Shown piece after piece: positions 1,245-7,308 of a stretch of DNA of 20,376 bases. Position 1 is the stretch's first letter, and each line of letters opens with the position of its first letter. The notes under the pieces are model-generated. The model did no database searches. It was not told the origin of the DNA and worked only from the letters and a program-made list of their open reading frames with translations. This DNA is from a virus (Duplodnaviria; Heunggongvirae; Uroviricota; Caudoviricetes), in the IMG/VR virus record IMGVR_UViG_648276651_000003, positions 1 through 20,376 of that record. One strand, 5' to 3'. A program made the position numbers and the translations under genes.

Positions 1245-1470
1245 CGCTAATTATCCGTCTCAGTTTTGGGTTAACATTTATTGGAAGTTGCGGTTCAGCA
1301 ACTACACCTATAAAACGAGCTTCTTTGTCAACCATCCAGCGCCGTCCGACTCTCATCGGTGGTGGCGCTATCATCTGACCTTTAGCGTATTTTTTTAATA
1401 CTCGCTCGCTAGGGGCTTCACTGCCGAATTCATCTTTCGCCCATTCGAGTAAAGAGACCATACGTGACAT
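1234..1470 (-). CDS. xis: Excisionase (Xis-like)
   Basis: Internal ATG at 1470 with GGAGA RBS about 7 nt upstream (minus strand); product MSRMVSLLEWAKDEFG...IAPPPMRVGRRWMVDKEARF resembles excisionase/winged-helix Xis; overlaps int start as in lambda; the longer ORF to 1623 overlaps the upstream gene and is likely an over-extension. Confidence 0.55.
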   Translation of the reverse strand: MSRMVSLLEWAKDEFGSEAPSERVLKKYAKGQMIAPPPMRVGRRWMVDKEARFIGVVAEPQLPINVNPKLRRIISDGS

Positions 1471-1498
1471 TTCTTCTCCACATACCGGCTGCACCCGG

Positions 1499-1876
1499 TT
1501 ATCGAACGTTATAAGCACATGACGAGCAACCGCCACGAATCCCGTCATTACATCTTCTGCATAGCTGGTGGTCTCGATCATCCTTGGCCGGTTCACTGCC
1601 GGGTGACTGCGGGGCGGCTGCAAGCAGTCTGTGCCAGGCGTCTACAGAGTCTTCTGCGCCATAGTCGATAATTGAGTCGAACTCGTCGAGAATCTCCTTC
1701 GTCGGCTCGACCGGCACCATCACGTAACCATCCGGAATTGCCGGAGAATTGCAAGCGCTGAGCAATCGTTCCATGATTTCGACCATATCTTCTGGCGGAA
1801 CCTTGCAGGACTGGCCGATGTACCTCTGCTGTTTGGCGTATTCGAGAATGTGCTCCAGTTTGTTGCGGTTGATCAT
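1499..1876 (-). CDS. Hypothetical early-left operon protein (125 aa)
   Basis: ATG start; 4-nt ATGA stop/start overlap with the upstream gene (1873-1876); no family recognised. Confidence 0.5.
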   Translation of the reverse strand: MINRNKLEHILEYAKQQRYIGQSCKVPPEDMVEIMERLLSACNSPAIPDGYVMVPVEPTKEILDEFDSIIDYGAEDSVDAWHRLLAAAPQSPGSEPAKDDRDHQLCRRCNDGIRGGCSSCAYNVR

Positions 1877-2346
1877 GACTTACCTCCGCTAAGCATGGCG
1901 GCGCGGCAGGCTAATGCTTCAGCCCGGTTGTTCGCCTCCTGTGGCGCAGCACCATACACACGCGCCAATACTTCGTCAGAATCCTCGCCAATGTGAAGTT
2001 GAACCCACCAATCACCCAGGCCAGGGTAATCATCCTGATTCATTGTAGGGAGGCGACCGACGCGGATTTCACCGATATCATCCGATACGGCTGGCACTAC
2101 CGGCGCTGGCTGCGGGCTGGCATAGACCGGCATAACATCATCATGACCCTTGTTACTTTTATCCGTCAGAGACCAGAACAACCGTCCTGCTGGATGCTTG
2201 AAGATGTACGCCACCGGCTCGCTGTCCATTGCGGCCAGCGCCATGCGCGCCAATTCTTCAATTTCAGCGTGAGACGGCGGCAGTGTCATTGCACGATGAA
2301 AGTTAGCGATTAGCTCAATGCGCTCTCTGGTTAATTTGCTGGTCAT
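1873..2346 (-). CDS. Hypothetical early-left operon protein (157 aa)
   Basis: ATG start at 2346 overlapping the upstream stop; no family recognised. Confidence 0.5.
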   Translation of the reverse strand: MTSKLTRERIELIANFHRAMTLPPSHAEIEELARMALAAMDSEPVAYIFKHPAGRLFWSLTDKSNKGHDDVMPVYASPQPAPVVPAVSDDIGEIRVGRLPTMNQDDYPGLGDWWVQLHIGEDSDEVLARVYGAAPQEANNRAEALACRAAMLSGGKS

Positions 2347-2579
2347 TGGTTGGCTCCTTCAATGGTCTGGAATCCAGCAGCGGTTAGCTCTACACGGTCC
2401 CGAACAGGGTTGAGGTAAACGGTCTTGATCAGACCTTTTGACTTCAAACGCCTCGCTACAGCCGAGCATAATGTGTCGGTGGATTCCCACCAGTAGCGAT
2501 CGAATCGACCACGGAGCATCACTTGACCTTCGCTAATAGCACGAAGAGTATTGAGCTGATAATCGGTTAATTTCGCCAT
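2343..2579 (-). CDS. Hypothetical small protein (78 aa), possibly DNA-binding
   Basis: ATG at 2579 overlaps the upstream stop as ATGA (GTG at 2582 is the alternative start shown in the ORF track); basic helix-rich segment ...CSAVARRLKSKGLIKTVYLN... Confidence 0.45.
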   Translation of the reverse strand: MAKLTDYQLNTLRAISEGQVMLRGRFDRYWWESTDTLCSAVARRLKSKGLIKTVYLNPVRDRVELTAAGFQTIEGANQ

Positions 2580-3022
2580 CACTCAGCCTCCACCTTGATG
2601 CCAGCCGTATGAGCAGCCAGGCATTTATTGAACCCTTCGTTGTTATTAGCCAGCCCGAGATTCCAGCCAGCAGTTAAGCCAGCTCTGTAGGCGCTCTCCT
2701 GCAGGTTTTCTACAGTGACGGTGCGAGACTCCAGCTCGGCGATTCGTTGCTCAGCCGCCTTGCGCTTGCGGAACTGCGCCTTACGACTGGCTCTCAGATT
2801 ATTTTTAGCCAGTTCAGCCATGTAGAGTTGGTGCTCTGCGTTAGCCAAGCGCTGACGAACTTCATCGTTCTCCAGTTCATCAATCTTCTGCTGTGCCTTC
2901 TCCAGTGCCTCTACCAGCTCCTTTAGGTCTCTGGTTTTAATATTCATCTGAGGGTTGAAATTGCTTACCGCGCGATGTGCTTCAAGTTTTAACCTCAGCG
3001 CCAGTTCGGTGATATCAGTCAT
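2579..3022 (-). CDS. Hypothetical coiled-coil protein (147 aa)
   Basis: Charged helical sequence rich in E/K/R/L/A (KELVEALEKAQQKIDELENDEVRQRLANAEHQL...); ATG at 3022. Confidence 0.5.
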   Translation of the reverse strand: MTDITELALRLKLEAHRAVSNFNPQMNIKTRDLKELVEALEKAQQKIDELENDEVRQRLANAEHQLYMAELAKNNLRASRKAQFRKRKAAEQRIAELESRTVTVENLQESAYRAGLTAGWNLGLANNNEGFNKCLAAHTAGIKVEAE

Positions 3023-3132
3023 GCTGCATCCTCACATTCGTGACTTTCCGGATCGTCGGCTTTGTAATAACCGCCGCACAAGGTGCAACGAACATCAGGA
3101 ACTTCATCGTAATTCGTGGTCCCAGTGATCAT
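3019..3132 (-). CDS. Small Cys/His-containing ORF (37 aa), zinc-ribbon-like
   Basis: Not in the ORF track (under 60 aa); my translation MITGTTNYDEVPDVRCTLCGGYYKADDPESHECEDAA; ATGA overlap with upstream stop (3129-3132) and with downstream start (3019-3022). Confidence 0.35.
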   Translation of the reverse strand: MITGTTNYDEVPDVRCTLCGGYYKADDPESHECEDAA

Positions 3133-3530
3133 TTGGCCCCCTCGCGCAGCGAATCCGCCAACCATTGCAGATTCATAATCTGCACGCCGATATTGCTGAA
3201 CTTTTTCTCCAGGTGAGCGATAGCCTTCTCAACTCCGCGCGCCTCGGCTTCGGCTACGATGCGATCGGTGGCGGGGGTTTCGTCTGCAAACGTGTCGCAA
3301 ATCATATGCAGGTAGCCTTCATTCGTTGGTCTGATACGGTTCATCACCCCAGCGATGAAATACTCCCGGCATTCGCTGATTATTTTTTTTGCCTCCACAT
3401 TCTCCGCAGCCAGCTGCTGGTACGCTTTCGCCAGCTTCAGGAACTTCTGCTCTCTGATCGACAGCTCGCCTGCGCTCTCCAGCGACTGAATGAGTTCGTT
3501 TACTGTTGAGATGTTCATGCTGTCCACCAT
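3129..3530 (-). CDS. Hypothetical early-left operon protein (133 aa)
   Basis: ATG at 3530; no family recognised; true start could be the internal Met (MNIS..., 3518). Confidence 0.5.
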   Translation of the reverse strand: MVDSMNISTVNELIQSLESAGELSIREQKFLKLAKAYQQLAAENVEAKKIISECREYFIAGVMNRIRPTNEGYLHMICDTFADETPATDRIVAEAEARGVEKAIAHLEKKFSNIGVQIMNLQWLADSLREGAK

Positions 3531-3649
3531 TCAATAAACATGCAGATACCAACGGTTACTACGGCAATCAGCACCCAGCAGATCACATCCAAAATGGCGG
3601 CGAACCGACGGAGGGTGTATTTGCTGTAATTCTCAGGATCCATATTCAT
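3515..3649 (-). CDS. Small hydrophobic ORF (44 aa), putative membrane peptide
   Basis: Not in the ORF track; my translation MNMDPENYSKYTLRRFAAILDVICWVLIAVVTVGICMFIEWWTA; start overlaps the ParB-like stop as ATGA (3646-3649). Confidence 0.35.
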   Translation of the reverse strand: MNMDPENYSKYTLRRFAAILDVICWVLIAVVTVGICMFIEWWTA

Positions 3650-4431
3650 ACCGCCTCCCCAAGCACCCAGCGCAGAGCCTCGGCATATTCGCCACTGGCA
3701 TCTTCGAGTGCTTTTGTAATTTCCTTGCGTGATTTGATACGCGGCTTTGCTTCACCAAGAACCTGGCGCTGTCGCCGGGCTTTTTCATGGCCCGTGGTGC
3801 CGGCGGTCGCTGTCTCGATCTGCTTGACCTTCTCCCGTTGCTCTTCGGGTTTAAGCGATGCCAACTGACGCGCCTGGGTAACGGTAATTGTGCCAGCCTC
3901 TACCGCTTCCCGGACGGCCTGGGTAGCATCGAGAAGGGAGAGCGTTGCTCGAACGGTCTGAACGCTGCAGCCAAACAACACCGCAATGTCGTCCTCATCG
4001 AGCCCGCGGTCGAGCGCATCTGACATTTTTTTAGCCCGGCCAAGCGGCGTATCAGGTCGGCGAATTTCGTTTTCGCTTACCATGTATTTAGCCATCTGAT
4101 TTGCTGATCCGCGCTTAACGACCCCAGGAACAAGCAGTGGGGCTTTGCCCTCTTTCAAAAGAAGCTTATTTGCCTCCAGGGTATGTTTTACGCGCTGACG
4201 GCCTACAACTACGCAGGTGAGCCCCGTTTCAGGGTCTTTCCAGACGATGATAGGTTCCAGTACACCCAGCTCTTTGATGTTCAGAACCATTCCTTCGTCG
4301 ATAGGAAGGTGGACCCGTTCATCGTAAAGCGGGTGTGTTTTGTCGGTAACCAGATGCAGGCTTTCAGGTTCGAACGTTAAAACGTTCGTTTTGCCGCTGG
4401 CGCCGTATACAACCTTTGAGTCTTTAGCCAT
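3646..4431 (-). CDS. ParB-like nuclease-domain protein (ParB/sulfiredoxin fold)
   Basis: 261-aa product; N-terminal region LNIKELGVLEPIIVWKDPETGLTCVVVGRQRVKH resembles the ParB N-terminal domain, followed by an HTH-like segment; phage-borne ParB-like nucleases are a known family. Confidence 0.65.
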   Translation of the reverse strand: MAKDSKVVYGASGKTNVLTFEPESLHLVTDKTHPLYDERVHLPIDEGMVLNIKELGVLEPIIVWKDPETGLTCVVVGRQRVKHTLEANKLLLKEGKAPLLVPGVVKRGSANQMAKYMVSENEIRRPDTPLGRAKKMSDALDRGLDEDDIAVLFGCSVQTVRATLSLLDATQAVREAVEAGTITVTQARQLASLKPEEQREKVKQIETATAGTTGHEKARRQRQVLGEAKPRIKSRKEITKALEDASGEYAEALRWVLGEAV

Positions 4432-4730
4432 CAGAGAGCCTCCACGTTACGGAAGCTGGTAGGGCAAATTGCTTTCAAGTCGCGCATTGCTTCGAGGACA
4501 TGTAGATTTGTGCGATTCTTGGTGTGTCGCTCGGTCAGACGATCACACTCTTTCGCCCATGATTTGACCTCTGCGAGAAGGGCGTCACGTTCGGTGCGCG
4601 TCTGGCGCAGAGCTACATTCGAAACATCGAGGACGGTAGCCAGTTCCTTGATGATTGCTGCCTGTTCTGGTGGCATAGTTTTGGCTATTTCGTACGCCTG
4701 TTTAATCAGTTGTTTTGCTGTCTTAGCCAT
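4431..4730 (-). CDS. Hypothetical protein, first gene of the leftward early operon (99 aa from ATG 4730)
   Basis: ATG at 4730 with GGAGA RBS; the track ORF start at 4781 is a TTG extension; no arginine-rich N-like motif seen. Confidence 0.5.
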   Translation of the reverse strand: MAKTAKQLIKQAYEIAKTMPPEQAAIIKELATVLDVSNVALRQTRTERDALLAEVKSWAKECDRLTERHTKNRTNLHVLEAMRDLKAICPTSFRNVEAL

Positions 4731-5268
4731 CTTTTGTTCTCCATCTGACGCGCTGCAACGCGTAAATTTTGGGTGCAGCAACCCAACCCATGAGAGTGGG
4801 TGAATAGCTGGTTAAAATTTCTTGCTGATGGGGGACCGCCACTGCAATGGCGGTACGTTAGTTCTCCACACAACGAAAAGAGCACTGATACGATTAGCTA
4901 TTGCGTTCGGATCGGCGCACGGCTTGTGTGTTTGCCCGTTCACCGCCAATGCTCTCATCTGTTATGTCCCGGACTCTTCCCGGGCGTCACACCTTTTCGC
5001 CGCGCTGGTGGGGCGCACGTCGTGCCTGAACACTTAGCTTGCACATTCCGGTTGTTCTGAGAGGCATGGATAAAGGTAACTCTCTGGCGGCTAACGCTGC
5101 ATGTGCCATACAGCGGTTGCGAATATTGCCGTTCACAACTGGAAGCGCACTCCTTCAGTTACAAACCGATCCCCACCGGAAAGAAGGGGAATGCGCTTCC
5201 ATGTTGTGTTCTGTTCATCCTTGTCCGTAAGTTGCGTCATGTGCCGACGAATAGAAGATAATCATAAA

Positions 5269-5305
5269 TTGCGAGTAACGCAATAGTTAAGTGCGTAAAG
5301 CGCAA
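5269..5305. promoter_or_regulatory. Left operator region (OL-like): two 15-bp palindromes TTGCG-N5-CGCAA
   Basis: ttgcgagtaacgcaa (5269-5283) and gtgcgtaaagcgcaa (5291-5305) read directly; same half-site as the sites between cI and cro. Confidence 0.55.
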
Positions 5306-5315
5306 ATTTAAGGCG

Positions 5316-5340
5316 AAAAAAAAAGGCCTCGAAGGAGGCC
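5316..5340 (-). terminator. Intrinsic terminator downstream of cI (leftward)
   Basis: Hairpin ggcctc-gaag-gaggcc (5325-5340) followed on the minus strand by a T9 run (plus-strand A9 at 5316-5324). Confidence 0.6.
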
Positions 5341-5359
5341 TAGTTTATGATGATGAATG

Positions 5360-6055
5360 CTATCCATGCCGTTTAAAGGACTGAGACTGGCTTATTAAAA
5401 CCTTTCCGTAGATATAGAATCTGTGTTCATTCTCTTTAGTTATATTCCATTCTCTATAACGAGGGTTATCAGAGATGACTAGCAGTTGGTCTGGTATCAT
5501 CTGCAGGCGTTTAACATAAACTTTTCCATCAAAACCAAAGACGTAAATCCCATCCCCATCGAACTCATTGATAGTTACGTCCACAAAGATTAGGTCGCCA
5601 GGCTCAATCGTTGAGGCCATGCTATCACCGCGAACGTTGATGACCTTTACTCCAGATGGAGTCCTGCCACCAAACATTGCCAATGCCTGATCATTGCTGA
5701 ACTCGATAGCATGAATGACATCTATGACGTCACTACCGTGTATATGTCCTGCCCCGGCGCTTGCGCTCACATCAAGTACCTCGACTCTGTATACATCCAC
5801 ATCCTTTACGGGAGATGCATGTTTTTCACTGTTTATATGTACAGTAGTATCATTTTCGTCAGAGGTAAATAGGTCAGGTACACTTACGCTTAAAGCTTGA
5901 GCAAGTCGGTTAAGTGTCTGTTCTGAAAACTGCTTTTGTTTACCAGTTTCAAGCCTGGAAATATTGGCAGCATCAACGCCCACAGCTTCTGCAAGCTCTG
6001 CGATTTTAATGTTCTTCGCTAAGCGAAGTTGTCGTATGCGAGATCCTATTTTCAT
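5360..6055 (-). CDS. cI: CI-like prophage repressor (XRE-type HTH plus S24 LexA-like peptidase domain)
   Basis: N-terminal HTH (RIRQLRLAKNIKIAELAEAVGVDAANISRLETGK); C-terminal S24 signature with Ser in ...VRGDSMASTIEPGDLIFVD and Lys in ...VYVKRL; divergent from the cro-like gene. Confidence 0.85.
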   Translation of the reverse strand: MKIGSRIRQLRLAKNIKIAELAEAVGVDAANISRLETGKQKQFSEQTLNRLAQALSVSVPDLFTSDENDTTVHINSEKHASPVKDVDVYRVEVLDVSASAGAGHIHGSDVIDVIHAIEFSNDQALAMFGGRTPSGVKVINVRGDSMASTIEPGDLIFVDVTINEFDGDGIYVFGFDGKVYVKRLQMIPDQLLVISDNPRYREWNITKENEHRFYIYGKVLISQSQSFKRHG

Positions 6056-6075: not shown

Positions 6076-6138
6076 TTGCGTTTCGTGCAAAGCAACTTGC
6101 GCAATTCGCTAGCGTGGAATAACATGCGTAATACGCAA
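6076..6138. promoter_or_regulatory. Right operator region (OR-like) between cI and cro: three related 15-bp sites, with pRM/pR expected here
   Basis: ttgcgtttcgtgcaa (6076-6090), ttgcgcaattcgcta (6097-6111, imperfect), atgcgtaatacgcaa (6124-6138); tripartite layout between divergent repressor genes. Confidence 0.55.
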
Positions 6139-6429: not shown

Positions 6430-6891
6430 ATGGTAGAGCCAAACCTCAAAGAAGCCGTCAAAGCGATGTGCAAAGCATATCCAGGTGGGCGCGAAGCAAT
6501 GGCTGGCGCACTGGGAATGACGGTGACGCAGTTTAACAACAACCTTTACGAGAAAAACGGCTGTCGTTTCTTCGAAGTCAGCGAGCTGGAAGCGATGGAA
6601 GACATTTCCAACACGTCGTTACTGGCTGATTACTTCGCTCGCCGCCGTGGGGCTCTGCTGGTGGATGTTCCGCACCTGGAAGAGCTGGATCGCGTGGACT
6701 TGTTCAGTCGGGCAATGCGTACCTCTGCCGCCAGGGGGCAGGTTGATCAGATTATCGAACAGGCGCTTGAAGATGGCGTTATTGAAAGGCACGAGGCCGA
6801 AGAAATCATGGTGCATCACCGCCGCCACCTGGCAGCTCGGGAAGAAGAGATTGCCGCAATTATCACGTTGTTTGCACGCAAAAAGAAGTGA
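6430..6891 (+). CDS. CII-like regulator by position (possibly YdaT-like)
   Basis: ATG at 6430 with AAAGGA RBS; 153-aa product immediately downstream of cro; family assignment is positional, not from recognised motifs. Confidence 0.4.
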   Translation: MVEPNLKEAVKAMCKAYPGGREAMAGALGMTVTQFNNNLYEKNGCRFFEVSELEAMEDISNTSLLADYFARRRGALLVDVPHLEELDRVDLFSRAMRTSAARGQVDQIIEQALEDGVIERHEAEEIMVHHRRHLAAREEEIAAIITLFARKKK

Positions 6892-6918
6892 CGCCAGCGA
6901 GTTGCAGCTCCTGGCGTC
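6880..6918 (-). terminator. Stem-loop oriented as a leftward intrinsic terminator (candidate 3' end of an oop-like antisense RNA)
   Basis: 8-bp stem gacgccag / ctggcgtc (6890-6918) with a T-rich tail only on the minus strand (plus-strand aaaaagaag at 6880-6888); no T-run on the plus strand. Confidence 0.35.
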
Positions 6919-7128
6919 GTGGCGTGTCGTTATCAGTGGAGATTACTAACGCATGAACAGTTTATCAACACAATACCGCAGGTCGCAACTTGTAGCGCGG
7001 CCAGTTCCTGGTGGAGCAGGGCCGGTGCAGTTCGTGTATGGGGTAAGAGTACCAGGCGGGTTCGAGCCTGTCTGCTACCAGTTTGCTCAGTGGGTGGTAG
7101 GGGACTTCAACGGCCAGGCGGAGAAAGT

Positions 7129-7308
7129 ATGCGAGAGCTTAACCGATGGTTCAGAGATCACTACGGAGTCCCGGTCAGGGTTATACGCTGGGAGCCCCAG
7201 ACACAGCGCGTTATATACCTGCGTGAAGGGTACGAGCATGAATGCTTTAGCCCCCTTGAGCAGTTCAGACGTAAATTCAGAGAAATAAAGGACGATCATG
7301 AGCACTAA
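7129..7308 (+). CDS. Small hypothetical protein (59 aa)
   Basis: ATG at 7129 with GGAGA RBS; protein-like C-terminal part of track ORF 6919-7308 (MRELNRWFRDHYGVPVRVIRWEPQTQRVIYLREGYEHECF...); overlaps the O-like start. Confidence 0.4.
   Translation: MRELNRWFRDHYGVPVRVIRWEPQTQRVIYLREGYEHECFSPLEQFRRKFREIKDDHEH

Follow-up and report, generated by a model that had tools for sequence, protein, structure and literature searches.

The early-left block and its gene chain

The subject of this paper is a block of nine genes, g9 to g1 in operon order, that lies on the minus strand at positions 1,499 to 4,730 of a viral DNA record in IMG/VR (IMGVR_UViG_648276651_000003). The stretch that we analysed, called the window below, comprises positions 1 to 20,376 of that record (20,376 nt) and corresponds to the left half of a lambdoid prophage, oriented as is conventional for lambda. 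The gene order is the lambdoid one, int-xis-early left-cI-cro-cII-O...Q-lysis-terminase. That is, int, xis, the block and the CI repressor gene occupy the minus strand, and the plus strand continues with cro, a cII-like gene, an open reading frame (ORF) of 111 aa, an O-type initiator, a Dam-like methyltransferase, RusA, a 326-aa HNH protein, a Q-type antiterminator, holins, an endolysin, an HNH protein and the terminase. Coordinates are collected in Table 1.

A preceding sequence-only reading of the block had described about ten tightly coupled genes, and so it is: stop and start codons overlap at all eight junctions among g9-g1, as judged from the ORF list and the minus-strand sequence, so that nine genes form one chain and xis makes ten. 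Six of the junctions are of the ATGA type (g8/g7, g7/g6, g6/g5, g5/g4, g3/g2 and g2/g1) and two of the TGATG type (g9/g8 and g4/g3), while g1 and xis are separated by a gap of 28 nt that contains a hairpin. The start codons of three genes differ from those of the longest ORF (g6 at 3518, g5 at 3132, g3 at 2579), and the corrected proteins, of 129, 37 and 78 aa, are identical in length and sequence to public proteins. Identical public sequences are also known for g1, g2, g4, g7 and g8. An exact look-up of six of the nine proteins found all six in public Klebsiella or E. coli records, labelled "hypothetical"; in E. coli MS 116-1 the identical proteins bear consecutive accession numbers.

Individual features named in that reading are present as well: g4 is a coiled-coil protein, as are g6 and g9; g5 is a small ORF with a CxxC...HxC pattern; and g7 is a single-pass membrane peptide. 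Most of the proteins remain without an assigned function, since searches of Pfam, NCBIfam, PHROGs, PADLOC and PDB, together with two structure models, gave none. The ratio of nonsynonymous to synonymous substitution rates (dN/dS), computed only where diverged ungapped pairs of homologues existed, is 0.10 for g8, 0.11 for g5, 0.22 for g9 and 0.31 for g6, which indicates purifying selection.

Upstream of g9, a pL-like sigma-70 promoter sits just downstream of the cI terminator and overlaps one of two palindromes that resemble CI operators. Palindromes of the same type, TTGCG-N5-CGCAA, recur between cI and cro (6137-6125, 6187-6175 and 6076-6090). Since the promoter overlaps an operator of the type found between cI and cro, the assignment of the leftward genes to a CI-repressed early-left operon is supported, and transcription from pL is predicted. 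The early-left placement had been proposed before; with an operator-covered promoter on one side of the block and xis-int on the other, we retain it.

Absence of a recombination module and abundance of Chi

The sequence-only reading had recognised no Exo, Bet, Gam, Kil, CIII or N-like protein in the block, and this absence holds in profile, pairwise and tblastn tests. Within the limits of sensitivity of sequence methods, none of the nine proteins matches Exo, Bet, Gam, Erf, Kil, CIII, N, a single-stranded DNA-binding protein (SSB), a strand-annealing protein (SAP) or a RecBCD inhibitor in Pfam, PHROGs or NCBIfam. When 19 lambda early-region proteins are compared with the window by blastp and phmmer, only Int (35% identity) and, weakly, Xis are matched. 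A tblastn search with lambda Exo, Bet, Gam, Kil, CIII, Ea10, Ral and N and with HK022 Erf and Abc2 gives 0 matches in the window and in 80 related loci. These loci are the best 80 of at least 537 IMG/VR loci that encode a relative of the ParB-like protein g8, and their g8 is at least 93% identical to ours. These homology searches assign no gene of the block to Bet, Exo, Erf, RecET or Sak.

The window is, at the same time, exceptionally rich in Chi (GCTGGTGG). There are 14 sites in 20.4 kb, all on the plus strand, compared with 0.64 expected and a maximum of 3 in 100 shuffles. Ten of the 14 lie at 6657-12901, toward the right end of the virion map and just left of the lysis/terminase junction; one, at 1564-1571 (+), falls inside g1. 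Chi is the commonest octamer of the window and TGCTGGTG is the second, and the octamers of phages LLS and P1 are ranked likewise (PMC12315714). Across the 80 related loci, 373 Chi sites occur on the equivalent strand versus 33 on the other.

A class of lambdoid phages that have no Rec module and a high Chi content has recently been described, for which reliance on RecBCD was proposed and, in the case of LLS, shown (Zheng et al. 2025, PMC12315714). In LLS, 20 of the 23 Chi sites are on the top strand (PMC12315714). The 14 co-oriented Chi sites, together with the absent Rec module, lead us to file the present phage in this class. The likeness to LLS extends further. Both phages have the lambdoid gene order; neither has a SAP, exonuclease, SSB or anti-RecBCD gene or a homologue of N; and in both Chi is the commonest octamer, lies nearly always on the top strand and is concentrated toward the right end. 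The O protein is 79% identical over 168 aa, the HNH protein 53% and the orf111 homologue 38%. In both, an O-type initiator is followed by a methyltransferase with no helicase or loader gene, and a pL leader element and hairpins, described below, are also common to the two. In the window the initiator and the Dam-like methyltransferase adjoin directly (7298-9057), with no P, helicase or loader gene, an arrangement found in 34 'O only' lambdoid phages (Zheng et al. 2025, PMC12315714). LLS differs in its early-left cargo, which consists of yfbR/yfdQ/yfdP-type genes and a DnaQ-like exonuclease and includes no ParB, and in its host, E. coli K-12, where the present lineage is one of Klebsiella and Enterobacteriaceae.

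We consider it highly likely, therefore, that the missing Rec module is explained by membership of a Chi-rich class of phages that use the host's RecBCD; the dependence on RecBCD itself is predicted from the pattern of sites. With equal assurance we read the block as an early-left accessory operon, repressed by CI and transcribed from pL, in a lambdoid prophage of Klebsiella type that belongs to this LLS-type class. On induction or infection, transcription would begin at the operator-covered promoter (5290-5261), the transcript would cross a structured non-coding leader of 530 nt, and the nine ORFs would then be translated as a coupled chain. Recombination for the formation of concatemers would be supplied by host RecBCD and RecA, recruited by the 14 active-orientation Chi sites. 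The right operon encodes RusA resolvase and a nuclease at the HNH/NinG position, and these would assist the host-driven recombination.

The map position of the block is that of the Rec module in lambda, P22 and HK022, and it could conceivably hide such a module in a form that is not recognised, with one of the coiled-coil proteins g4, g6 or g9 acting like Gam or Abc2, which are likewise small helical proteins, or as an annealing mediator together with ParB. A ParB-like gene is, moreover, found in two unrelated lineages that are Rec-less and Chi-rich, the present one and Pseudomonas MD8. We nevertheless regard a hidden module as very unlikely. By sequence and by profile, none of the proteins is similar to a SAP, an exonuclease, an SSB or a RecBCD inhibitor, and the structure model of g9 has no Gam-like or other match in the PDB. 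None of g1-g7 or g9 is universal, even in close relatives, and LLS is without ParB; among the published Rec-less phages, too, no unknown gene is universally present (Zheng et al. 2025, PMC12315714). A RecBCD inhibitor is disfavoured in particular, because Chi is strongly selected in its active orientation here, while phages that bear an inhibitor are mostly without Chi (Zheng et al. 2025, PMC12315714).

Several observations weigh against our reading of the block as an accessory operon of an LLS-type phage. Of the 80 related loci that bear ParB, 11 lack Chi on the expected strand (with 0-4 sites on the other), and no Rec homologue was found in them. Dependence on RecBCD has been established experimentally for LLS only (PMC12315714). 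Four of the nine proteins, g2, g4, g6 and g9, are helical or modular, where sequence methods are weak, and the window covers only 20 kb, with the rest of the prophage outside the search for Rec genes. The dN/dS of g7 is 0.65 at very low dS; this supports coding constraint weakly, so that the coding status of g7 rests mostly on conservation of the ORF and on coupling. The model of g6, all-helical, is unreliable (mean predicted local distance difference test score, pLDDT, 61). Finally, no parS-like palindrome is common to the 81 loci compared.

The finding is real but ordinary: as an early-left accessory operon the block is typical and highly mosaic, and the Klebsiella/Enterobacteriaceae prophage lineage to which it belongs is a common one. 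Its main value is one of clarification. The missing Rec module is no gap in annotation, but marks a phage strategy, described only in 2025, of outsourcing recombination to RecBCD by way of Chi; and the lineage that follows it here is present in hundreds of genomes and carries one Chi per 1.46 kb, a higher density than that of LLS. The parts worth experiments are a trio of genes around the ParB-like gene and two conserved RNA-like elements, to which we now turn.

Table 1. Positions of genes, control elements and Chi sites in the 20,376-nt window.
Feature	Position	Strand	Remarks
Integrase, tyrosine type	102-1244	minus	35% identical to lambda Int, E 2.5e-67; overlaps xis by 11 nt
xis	1234-1470	minus	Pfam Exc 7e-8; phrog_629 1e-31
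Hairpin ACCGG[GUGCAG]CCGGU	1484-1499	minus	4 nt before UGGAGAA and the xis start codon
g1, 125 aa	1499-1876	minus	modular protein ending in CRRCNDGIRGGCSSCAYNVR
g2, 157 aa	1873-2346	minus	modular, Eaa-like
g3, 78 aa	2343-2579	minus	no family match
g4, 147 aa	2579-3022	minus	coiled-coil protein; phrog_1138
g5, 37 aa	3019-3132	minus	CxxC...HxC peptide; phrog_25957 1.4e-19
g6, 129 aa	3129-3518	minus	helical; phrog_492
g7, 44 aa	3515-3649	minus	single C-terminal hydrophobic segment; phrog_2936 1.4e-26
g8, 261 aa	3646-4431	minus	orphan ParB/Spo0J/Noc-like; phrog_1033 6e-78
g9, 99 aa	4431-4730	minus	first operon gene; helical; phrog_15091 (unknown function)
Hairpin ACGCG[UUGCAG]CGCGU	4748-4763	minus	5 nt before UGGAGAA and the g9 start codon
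GUGCUCUUUUCGUUGUGUGGAGAACUAACGU, then hairpin ACCGCCA[UUGCAG]UGGCGGU	4835-4885 (hairpin 4854-4835)	minus	in the leader
Invariant leader core, ~95 nt	4953-5046	minus	identical in 9/9 variants from related loci, flanks differ
Leader element, 75 nt	5134-5208	minus	arms CACAACAUGGAAGCGCAUUCC and GGAGUGCGCUUCCAGUUGUG; ~19-bp stem around a variable interior (folding)
pL-like sigma-70 promoter, TTAACT-18-TATGAT	5261-5290	minus	promoter scan
CI-operator-like palindrome ATTGCGTTACTCGCAAT	5284-5268		read from the sequence; overlaps promoter
CI-operator-like palindrome TGCGCTTTACGCA	5304-5292		read from the sequence; just upstream of promoter
cI intrinsic terminator, AGGCCTCCTTCGAGGCCT then T run	5324-5341	minus
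CI repressor, LexA-type	5360-6055	minus
Bulged hairpin	6890-6918	plus	after cII
Chi sites	1564, 5004, 6657, 8272, 8836, 9369, 9953, 10819, 11615, 11923, 12856, 12894, 20009, 20303	plus

The ParB-like protein and its two neighbours

The sequence-only reading had named a ParB-like nuclease-domain protein, g8. The ParB-like part of this description stands, and the nuclease part does not, for nothing indicates nuclease activity; 'ParB-like nuclease domain' is merely a historical Pfam name. Residues 128-220 of g8 match the helix-turn-helix (HTH) family HTH_ParB (PF17762; E 2.5e-12, 47.3 bits with a cut-off of 22.6), and the PHROG that it matches is labelled 'ParB-like partition protein'. Pfam ParBc is not reported in g8 at E<0.1, and the NCBIfam models TIGR00180, noc and PRTRC-ParB all score below their cut-offs (TIGR00180 34 bits versus 58). 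Among solved structures, sequence comparison ranks Spo0J (1vz0, 5.8e-8), Noc and a ParB family protein as the best relatives. The alignment with Spo0J 1vz0 spans the motifs that bind nucleoside triphosphate (NTP), namely GxxR (VVGRQRVKH) and ENxxR (SENEIRR). Where Spo0J has GERRYR, g8 has GRQRVK, which keeps the G and the second R; the ENLQRE of Spo0J corresponds to ENEIRR. Two of the three arginine positions of GERRxR are thereby replaced, by Q and K. We take g8 to be a predicted Spo0J/Noc-type protein, with an N-terminal domain of the NTP-binding type followed by a ParB HTH.

Public records label g8 a 'ParB/RepB/Spo0J family partition protein', and a genuine partition protein would keep the phage as a plasmid prophage. 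Several indications are contrary to this. There is no ParA or SopA gene adjoining g8, whose neighbours are ORFs of 99 and 44 aa, and no Walker-ATPase match in the operon (Pfam, PHROGs, NCBIfam). The phage has an integrase and an excisionase and is found integrated in chromosomes; g8 lies in a CI-repressed lytic operon, so that it would be silent in the lysogen; and the partition models of NCBIfam are not reached, as noted above. Given the absence of ParA, the integrating habit and the repressed lytic operon, a partition role is extremely improbable. The most likely task of g8, as a module with its neighbours g9 and g7, would instead be to bind DNA as a regulator or organiser, with neither partition nor cutting involved.

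Proteins of the ParB-CTPase type (hydrolysing cytidine triphosphate) that act without ParA offer the closest comparison: Noc, KorB with KorA/TrbA, and phage ParB proteins that activate thymine dioxygenases (PMC11790492, PMC13584720, PMC13229309). The comparison rests on a ParB/Srx-type N-domain with GxxR and ENxxR, putative in g8, followed by a ParB HTH, and on a stand-alone gene with small partner genes. A role other than segregation is plausible. The differences are considerable. In comparison with ParB and Noc, g8 scores only ~20-30 bits against the solved sequences, and the arginines of box II are partly replaced. Unlike Noc and KorB, it shows no recognised parS/NBS/OB-like site, Noc-like N-terminal amphipathic helix or KorA-like HTH partner. 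The phage ParBs that activate a dioxygenase are without a DNA-binding domain, whereas g8 has one.

The genes on either side of g8 tend to stay with it. Among the 80 related loci, g9 is upstream of ParB in ~59-64 and g7 downstream of it in 60-61, and in the remaining loci g9 is replaced by alternative genes. The g9-g8-g7 trio is the most stable part of the block and is its best-conserved and most tractable target. The protein g9 is itself less constant than ParB, for alleles of g9 that are only 31% identical accompany ParB proteins that are at least 93% identical. Only 45 sequence clusters of g9 exist, and each one that names an organism names Klebsiella. In the AlphaFold2 model of g9 (pLDDT 82), residues 21-88 form a single long helix, and a comparison of this model with the PDB gives no fold match.

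One possibility suggested by these facts is that the trio works as a KorB/Noc-like NTP switch, in which ParB, once loaded on a specific DNA site, would slide or spread and would be locked in place or localised by the small proteins beside it. The protein g9 would then be KorA/TrbA-like and g7 a membrane anchor, and DNA of the phage, the host or a competitor would be silenced or organised as a result. The retention of GxxR, ENxxR and the ParB HTH, with Spo0J and Noc as best solved relatives, is consistent with a switch of this kind, as are the strong purifying selection on g8 (dN/dS 0.10) and the translational coupling of g9 and g7 to g8, with which they co-occur in about 60 of the 80 loci. There are precedents, in that KorB is reported to be locked on DNA by small partners, and phage ParB homologues can activate other enzymes instead of segregating DNA. 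Weighed against these are the lack of a conserved parS-like palindrome, the two altered GERRxR arginines, the divergent g9 alleles beside a nearly constant ParB, and the lack of a ParA gene beside g8. The best parS candidate, CGAACGTTAAAACGTTCG, is an 18-bp palindrome at 4371-4388, in g8 codons 15-20, and occurs in 41 of the 81 loci. All told, we think the switch unlikely, though not negligibly so.

Orthologues of g8 outside the lineage also bear on the switch. They are found at 50-52% identity in Burkholderia phages, without g9 or g7, which speaks against a fixed trio. In Burkholderia KS9 the orthologue is in the early-left operon and adjoins an AlpA-type gene. In Burkholderia phiE125 (1335-4322) a 50%-identical orthologue belongs to the early-right operon, where a DNA methyltransferase gene and a gene like that of PAPS (3'-phosphoadenosine 5'-phosphosulfate) reductase immediately precede it, a pairing like that of IbrA/IbrB. 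Distant ParB-like genes, with roles unknown, have been reported in either early operon (Zheng et al. 2025, PMC12315714), and the Burkholderia placements agree with this. The phiE125 neighbourhood hints at a link of ParB to DNA modification, one that is not common to the window. A partnership of ParB with a methyltransferase was considered and set aside: the Dam-like methyltransferase of the window is not homologous to the phiE125 enzyme, and co-occurrence inside one phage lineage is not independent evidence.

Two observations concern the g8 coding sequence itself. Nucleotide variability across the stretch 4117-3965 is unusually low, at 0.002-0.03 compared with 0.04-0.2 in the flanks. At 3994-3973 there is a hairpin, GGACGACA[UUGCGG]UGUUGUUU, whose loop reads UUGCAG in 31 related loci.

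The pL leader and its 75-nt element

Between the promoter and g9 lies a leader of 530 nt (5260-4731, minus strand) that is non-coding and was not mentioned in the earlier reading. Two small ORFs in it, of 35 and 49 aa, were considered as N-like genes and rejected, since indels in relatives break their reading frames. Nor has an N-like arginine-rich protein any homologue here by PHROGs, comparison with lambda proteins or tblastn. The invariant core of the leader (Table 1) contains the Chi site at 5004-5011 (+).

The leader element proper starts ~45 nt downstream of the -10 hexamer. In the genomes that carry it, it measures 75-85 nt, with two complementary and almost invariant arms of ~20 nt. 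Over 78 nt it shares 81% identity with the LLS leader of pL (32153-32076), and the pattern of its 5' arm is found on at least 120 IMG/VR contigs, in 88 unique variants. Among these variants the 3' arm is nearly invariant, while the interior varies in sequence and length (74-85 nt). The variable spacing of the arms favours an RNA stem over a pair of DNA-binding sites. The element is single-copy in the window; in a few contigs it occurs in tandem, 343 nt apart.

Structured RNA elements just downstream of pL are known as lambda N/nut and HK022 put, and the leader element is like them in this position, in a phage here without an N gene. In HK022, put comprises two similar RNAs of ~70 nt that follow pL and pR and fold into two stem-loops each (PMC9378689). 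The leader element, in contrast, is one long stem, is single-copy and has no pR counterpart. Homology to put was rejected, as the element shows no similarity to the HK022 immunity region. A similarity between the left and right operons (5000-4978 and 6878-6900) was likewise dismissed: it falls within the end of the cII coding sequence and probably arose by chance.

Constant-loop hairpins before start codons

A second kind of RNA-like element consists of hairpins with a constant (U/G)UGCAG loop and variable stems. The genes g9 and xis are the only operon starts that are not translationally coupled, and each has such a hairpin together with a UGGAGAA Shine-Dalgarno sequence. In LLS and in lambdoid groups without ParB, xis likewise follows a hairpin with a UUGCAG or GUGCAG loop but another stem; the hairpins of this family in LLS lie at 28750, 30371 and 36027. 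Across the related loci, the ParB-less lambdoid groups and LLS, the same loop is found on at least nine different stems, and the placement is nearly always just before a Shine-Dalgarno sequence and start codon, 3-6 nt before UGGAGAA. The hairpin stretch before g9 (4748-4763) is more conserved than the coding sequence of g9. In phages with an RdgC-like gene, an element of the type at 4835-4885 lies directly upstream of that gene.

Comparison of the stems argues for structure in the transcript. Some stems contain G.U pairs, which fit only the transcribed strand. In relatives the stem of the hairpin at 4854-4835 shows a compensatory step from A-U to G-C, with a G.U intermediate. In these loci the (U/G)UGCAG loop is found on four distinct 5-bp stems, and any other hexaloop on at most two. 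Scored on 21 distinct instances, covariation is 0.84; shuffles give 0.25, and slid partners no more than 0.22. Since only instances with at least four pairs had been selected, it is the diversity of pair types, not pairing itself, that counts as evidence. Neither the leader element nor the hairpins have a family in Rfam.

Constant loops on variable stems recall lambda boxB. The leftward strand of lambda has no hairpin with a (U/G)UGCAG loop, however, and the present hairpins differ from lambda N/nut in standing 4-5 nt before Shine-Dalgarno sequences and at several genes per operon. At 4883-4877 a boxA-like GCUCUUU is reminiscent of the leader element's 3' arm in degenerate form, and a boxA reading of GUGCUCUUU is weakened, since this sequence is similar both to that arm and to the gene ends with the Cys motif that lie upstream of other hairpins.

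The leader element and the hairpins are candidates for processing signals, translational operators or antitermination signals. A bolder and rather doubtful proposal is that together they form one undescribed system of post-initiation control in LLS-type phages that have neither N nor put, read by a phage or host factor, and that, independently, the trio is a new NTP-switch module for the silencing or exclusion of DNA. The two elements bear on a question that LLS raises, that of how early operons are regulated in lambdoid phages without N, and they are now defined sequences that can be mutated.

The accessory genes g6 to g1

The remaining genes of the block vary freely. Among the 81 loci, 78 gene architectures can be told apart, yet the slots follow a constant order: first g9, ParB and g7, then g6 or any of three alternatives to it, next a member of the g4 family and one of the g2 family, and lastly small genes before xis and int. 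Among phage and E. coli records, no DNA-level record covers 80% of the block.

Modularity is clearest in g2 and g1. The protein g2 (phrog_60, phrog_6847) consists of a variable N-terminal part and an invariant C-domain of 75 aa. Some of its relatives also carry DUF551 (PF04448, 'Eaa1') or DUF550 (PF04447), two domains that g2 itself is without, and an N-terminal module, MT(K)S..TRERLE...LAAMDSEPVA, is common to g2 and to proteins that bear PF04448 or PF04447. The PHROG matches of g1 are segmental, and in another protein (P0279) the middle module of g1 occurs joined to the C-domain of g2. The C-terminus of g1 (1499-1560) has the motif G-(I/L)-R-G-G-C-S-S-C-x-(Y/F), which recurs at the 3' ends of otherwise unrelated genes that precede the xis hairpin; the copies differ by many synonymous changes, so that conservation is at the level of protein. 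Part of the leader, at 4885-4860, resembles a decayed copy of such a gene end.

The other proteins yield less. At least 7997 relatives of g6 are known, all small proteins, and every named one among the matches listed is hypothetical; the family comprises 299 representatives at 50% identity, which match one another segmentally. The g6 profile finds only coiled-coil noise in the PDB and Pfam, and sequence and profile searches of the PDB with g1, g2, g3 and g4 return nothing or the same kind of noise. The alignments used for structure modelling were shallow, containing only the top-ranked close homologues. An identical g5 protein is found on 283 contigs. Against Pfam and PADLOC, g4 gives only weak matches of the coiled-coil type (best PADLOC, JetC 1.7e-4), and its family recurs at the same slot with lengths of 91-225 aa. 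The gene g3 matches no PHROG, Pfam or PDB entry and is absent from the 80 related loci; it belongs to a 101-member cluster in Klebsiella.

In position and character these genes resemble the exo-xis or 'ea' region of lambda (ea22, ea8.5, orf61, orf63, orf60a) and the ea genes of P22-like phages. Both occupy the interval between the recombination slot and xis, and both contain small, non-essential-looking genes and coiled-coil or modular proteins with heavy mosaicism. The likeness to EaA and Eaa1 includes the DUF551 and DUF550 domains of g2 relatives, and neighbouring genes in relatives are annotated EaA or ead/Ea22-like. A difference from lambda is that the block has no significant pairwise similarity to lambda proteins (blastp against Ea22, E 0.25-0.94), and none of g1-g9 attains the corresponding Pfam or NCBIfam models; for g2, g4 and g6 this includes the model of the ead/Ea22 family. 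From family membership and mosaicism, g6-g1 appear to be freely shuffled, modular accessory cargo of the Ea/Eaa-like kind.

The sequence-only reading had suggested that the block is a reservoir of new anti-defence or host-takeover functions, and we treat this as conjecture. In its strongest form it holds that the block is mainly an anti-defence or host-takeover island, with at least one gene that counters restriction-modification, CRISPR or abortive infection or that is toxic to the host. Early expression, a non-essential appearance and the extreme turnover of cassettes, with nearly as many architectures as loci, are typical of counter-defence loci, but turnover is equally expected of neutral or lysogeny-modulating cargo of the 'ea' type. 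In relatives, the slots nearby contain genes of the RdgC-like, DGQHR-domain, methyltransferase and DUF450 kinds, and g7 is a small membrane peptide, of a kind that is often toxic. In the block itself there is no significant PADLOC match to a defence family and no PHROG annotated as anti-defence or host-takeover, which is a weak test. An island of this sort is thus possible but not probable, and we prefer to regard g6-g1 as putative Ea/Eaa-like cargo.

Other features of the window

No tRNA gene is found in the window. At 13501-14000, between the lysis genes and the HNH/terminase genes, lies an AT-rich island with a GC content of 0.33, compared with ~0.52 elsewhere, which may represent the cos region or else a moron. 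A palindrome of G/C runs, GGGGGGCGGGGGGCCCCCC(G), occupies positions 14-33, past the integrase gene at the far left end of the window.

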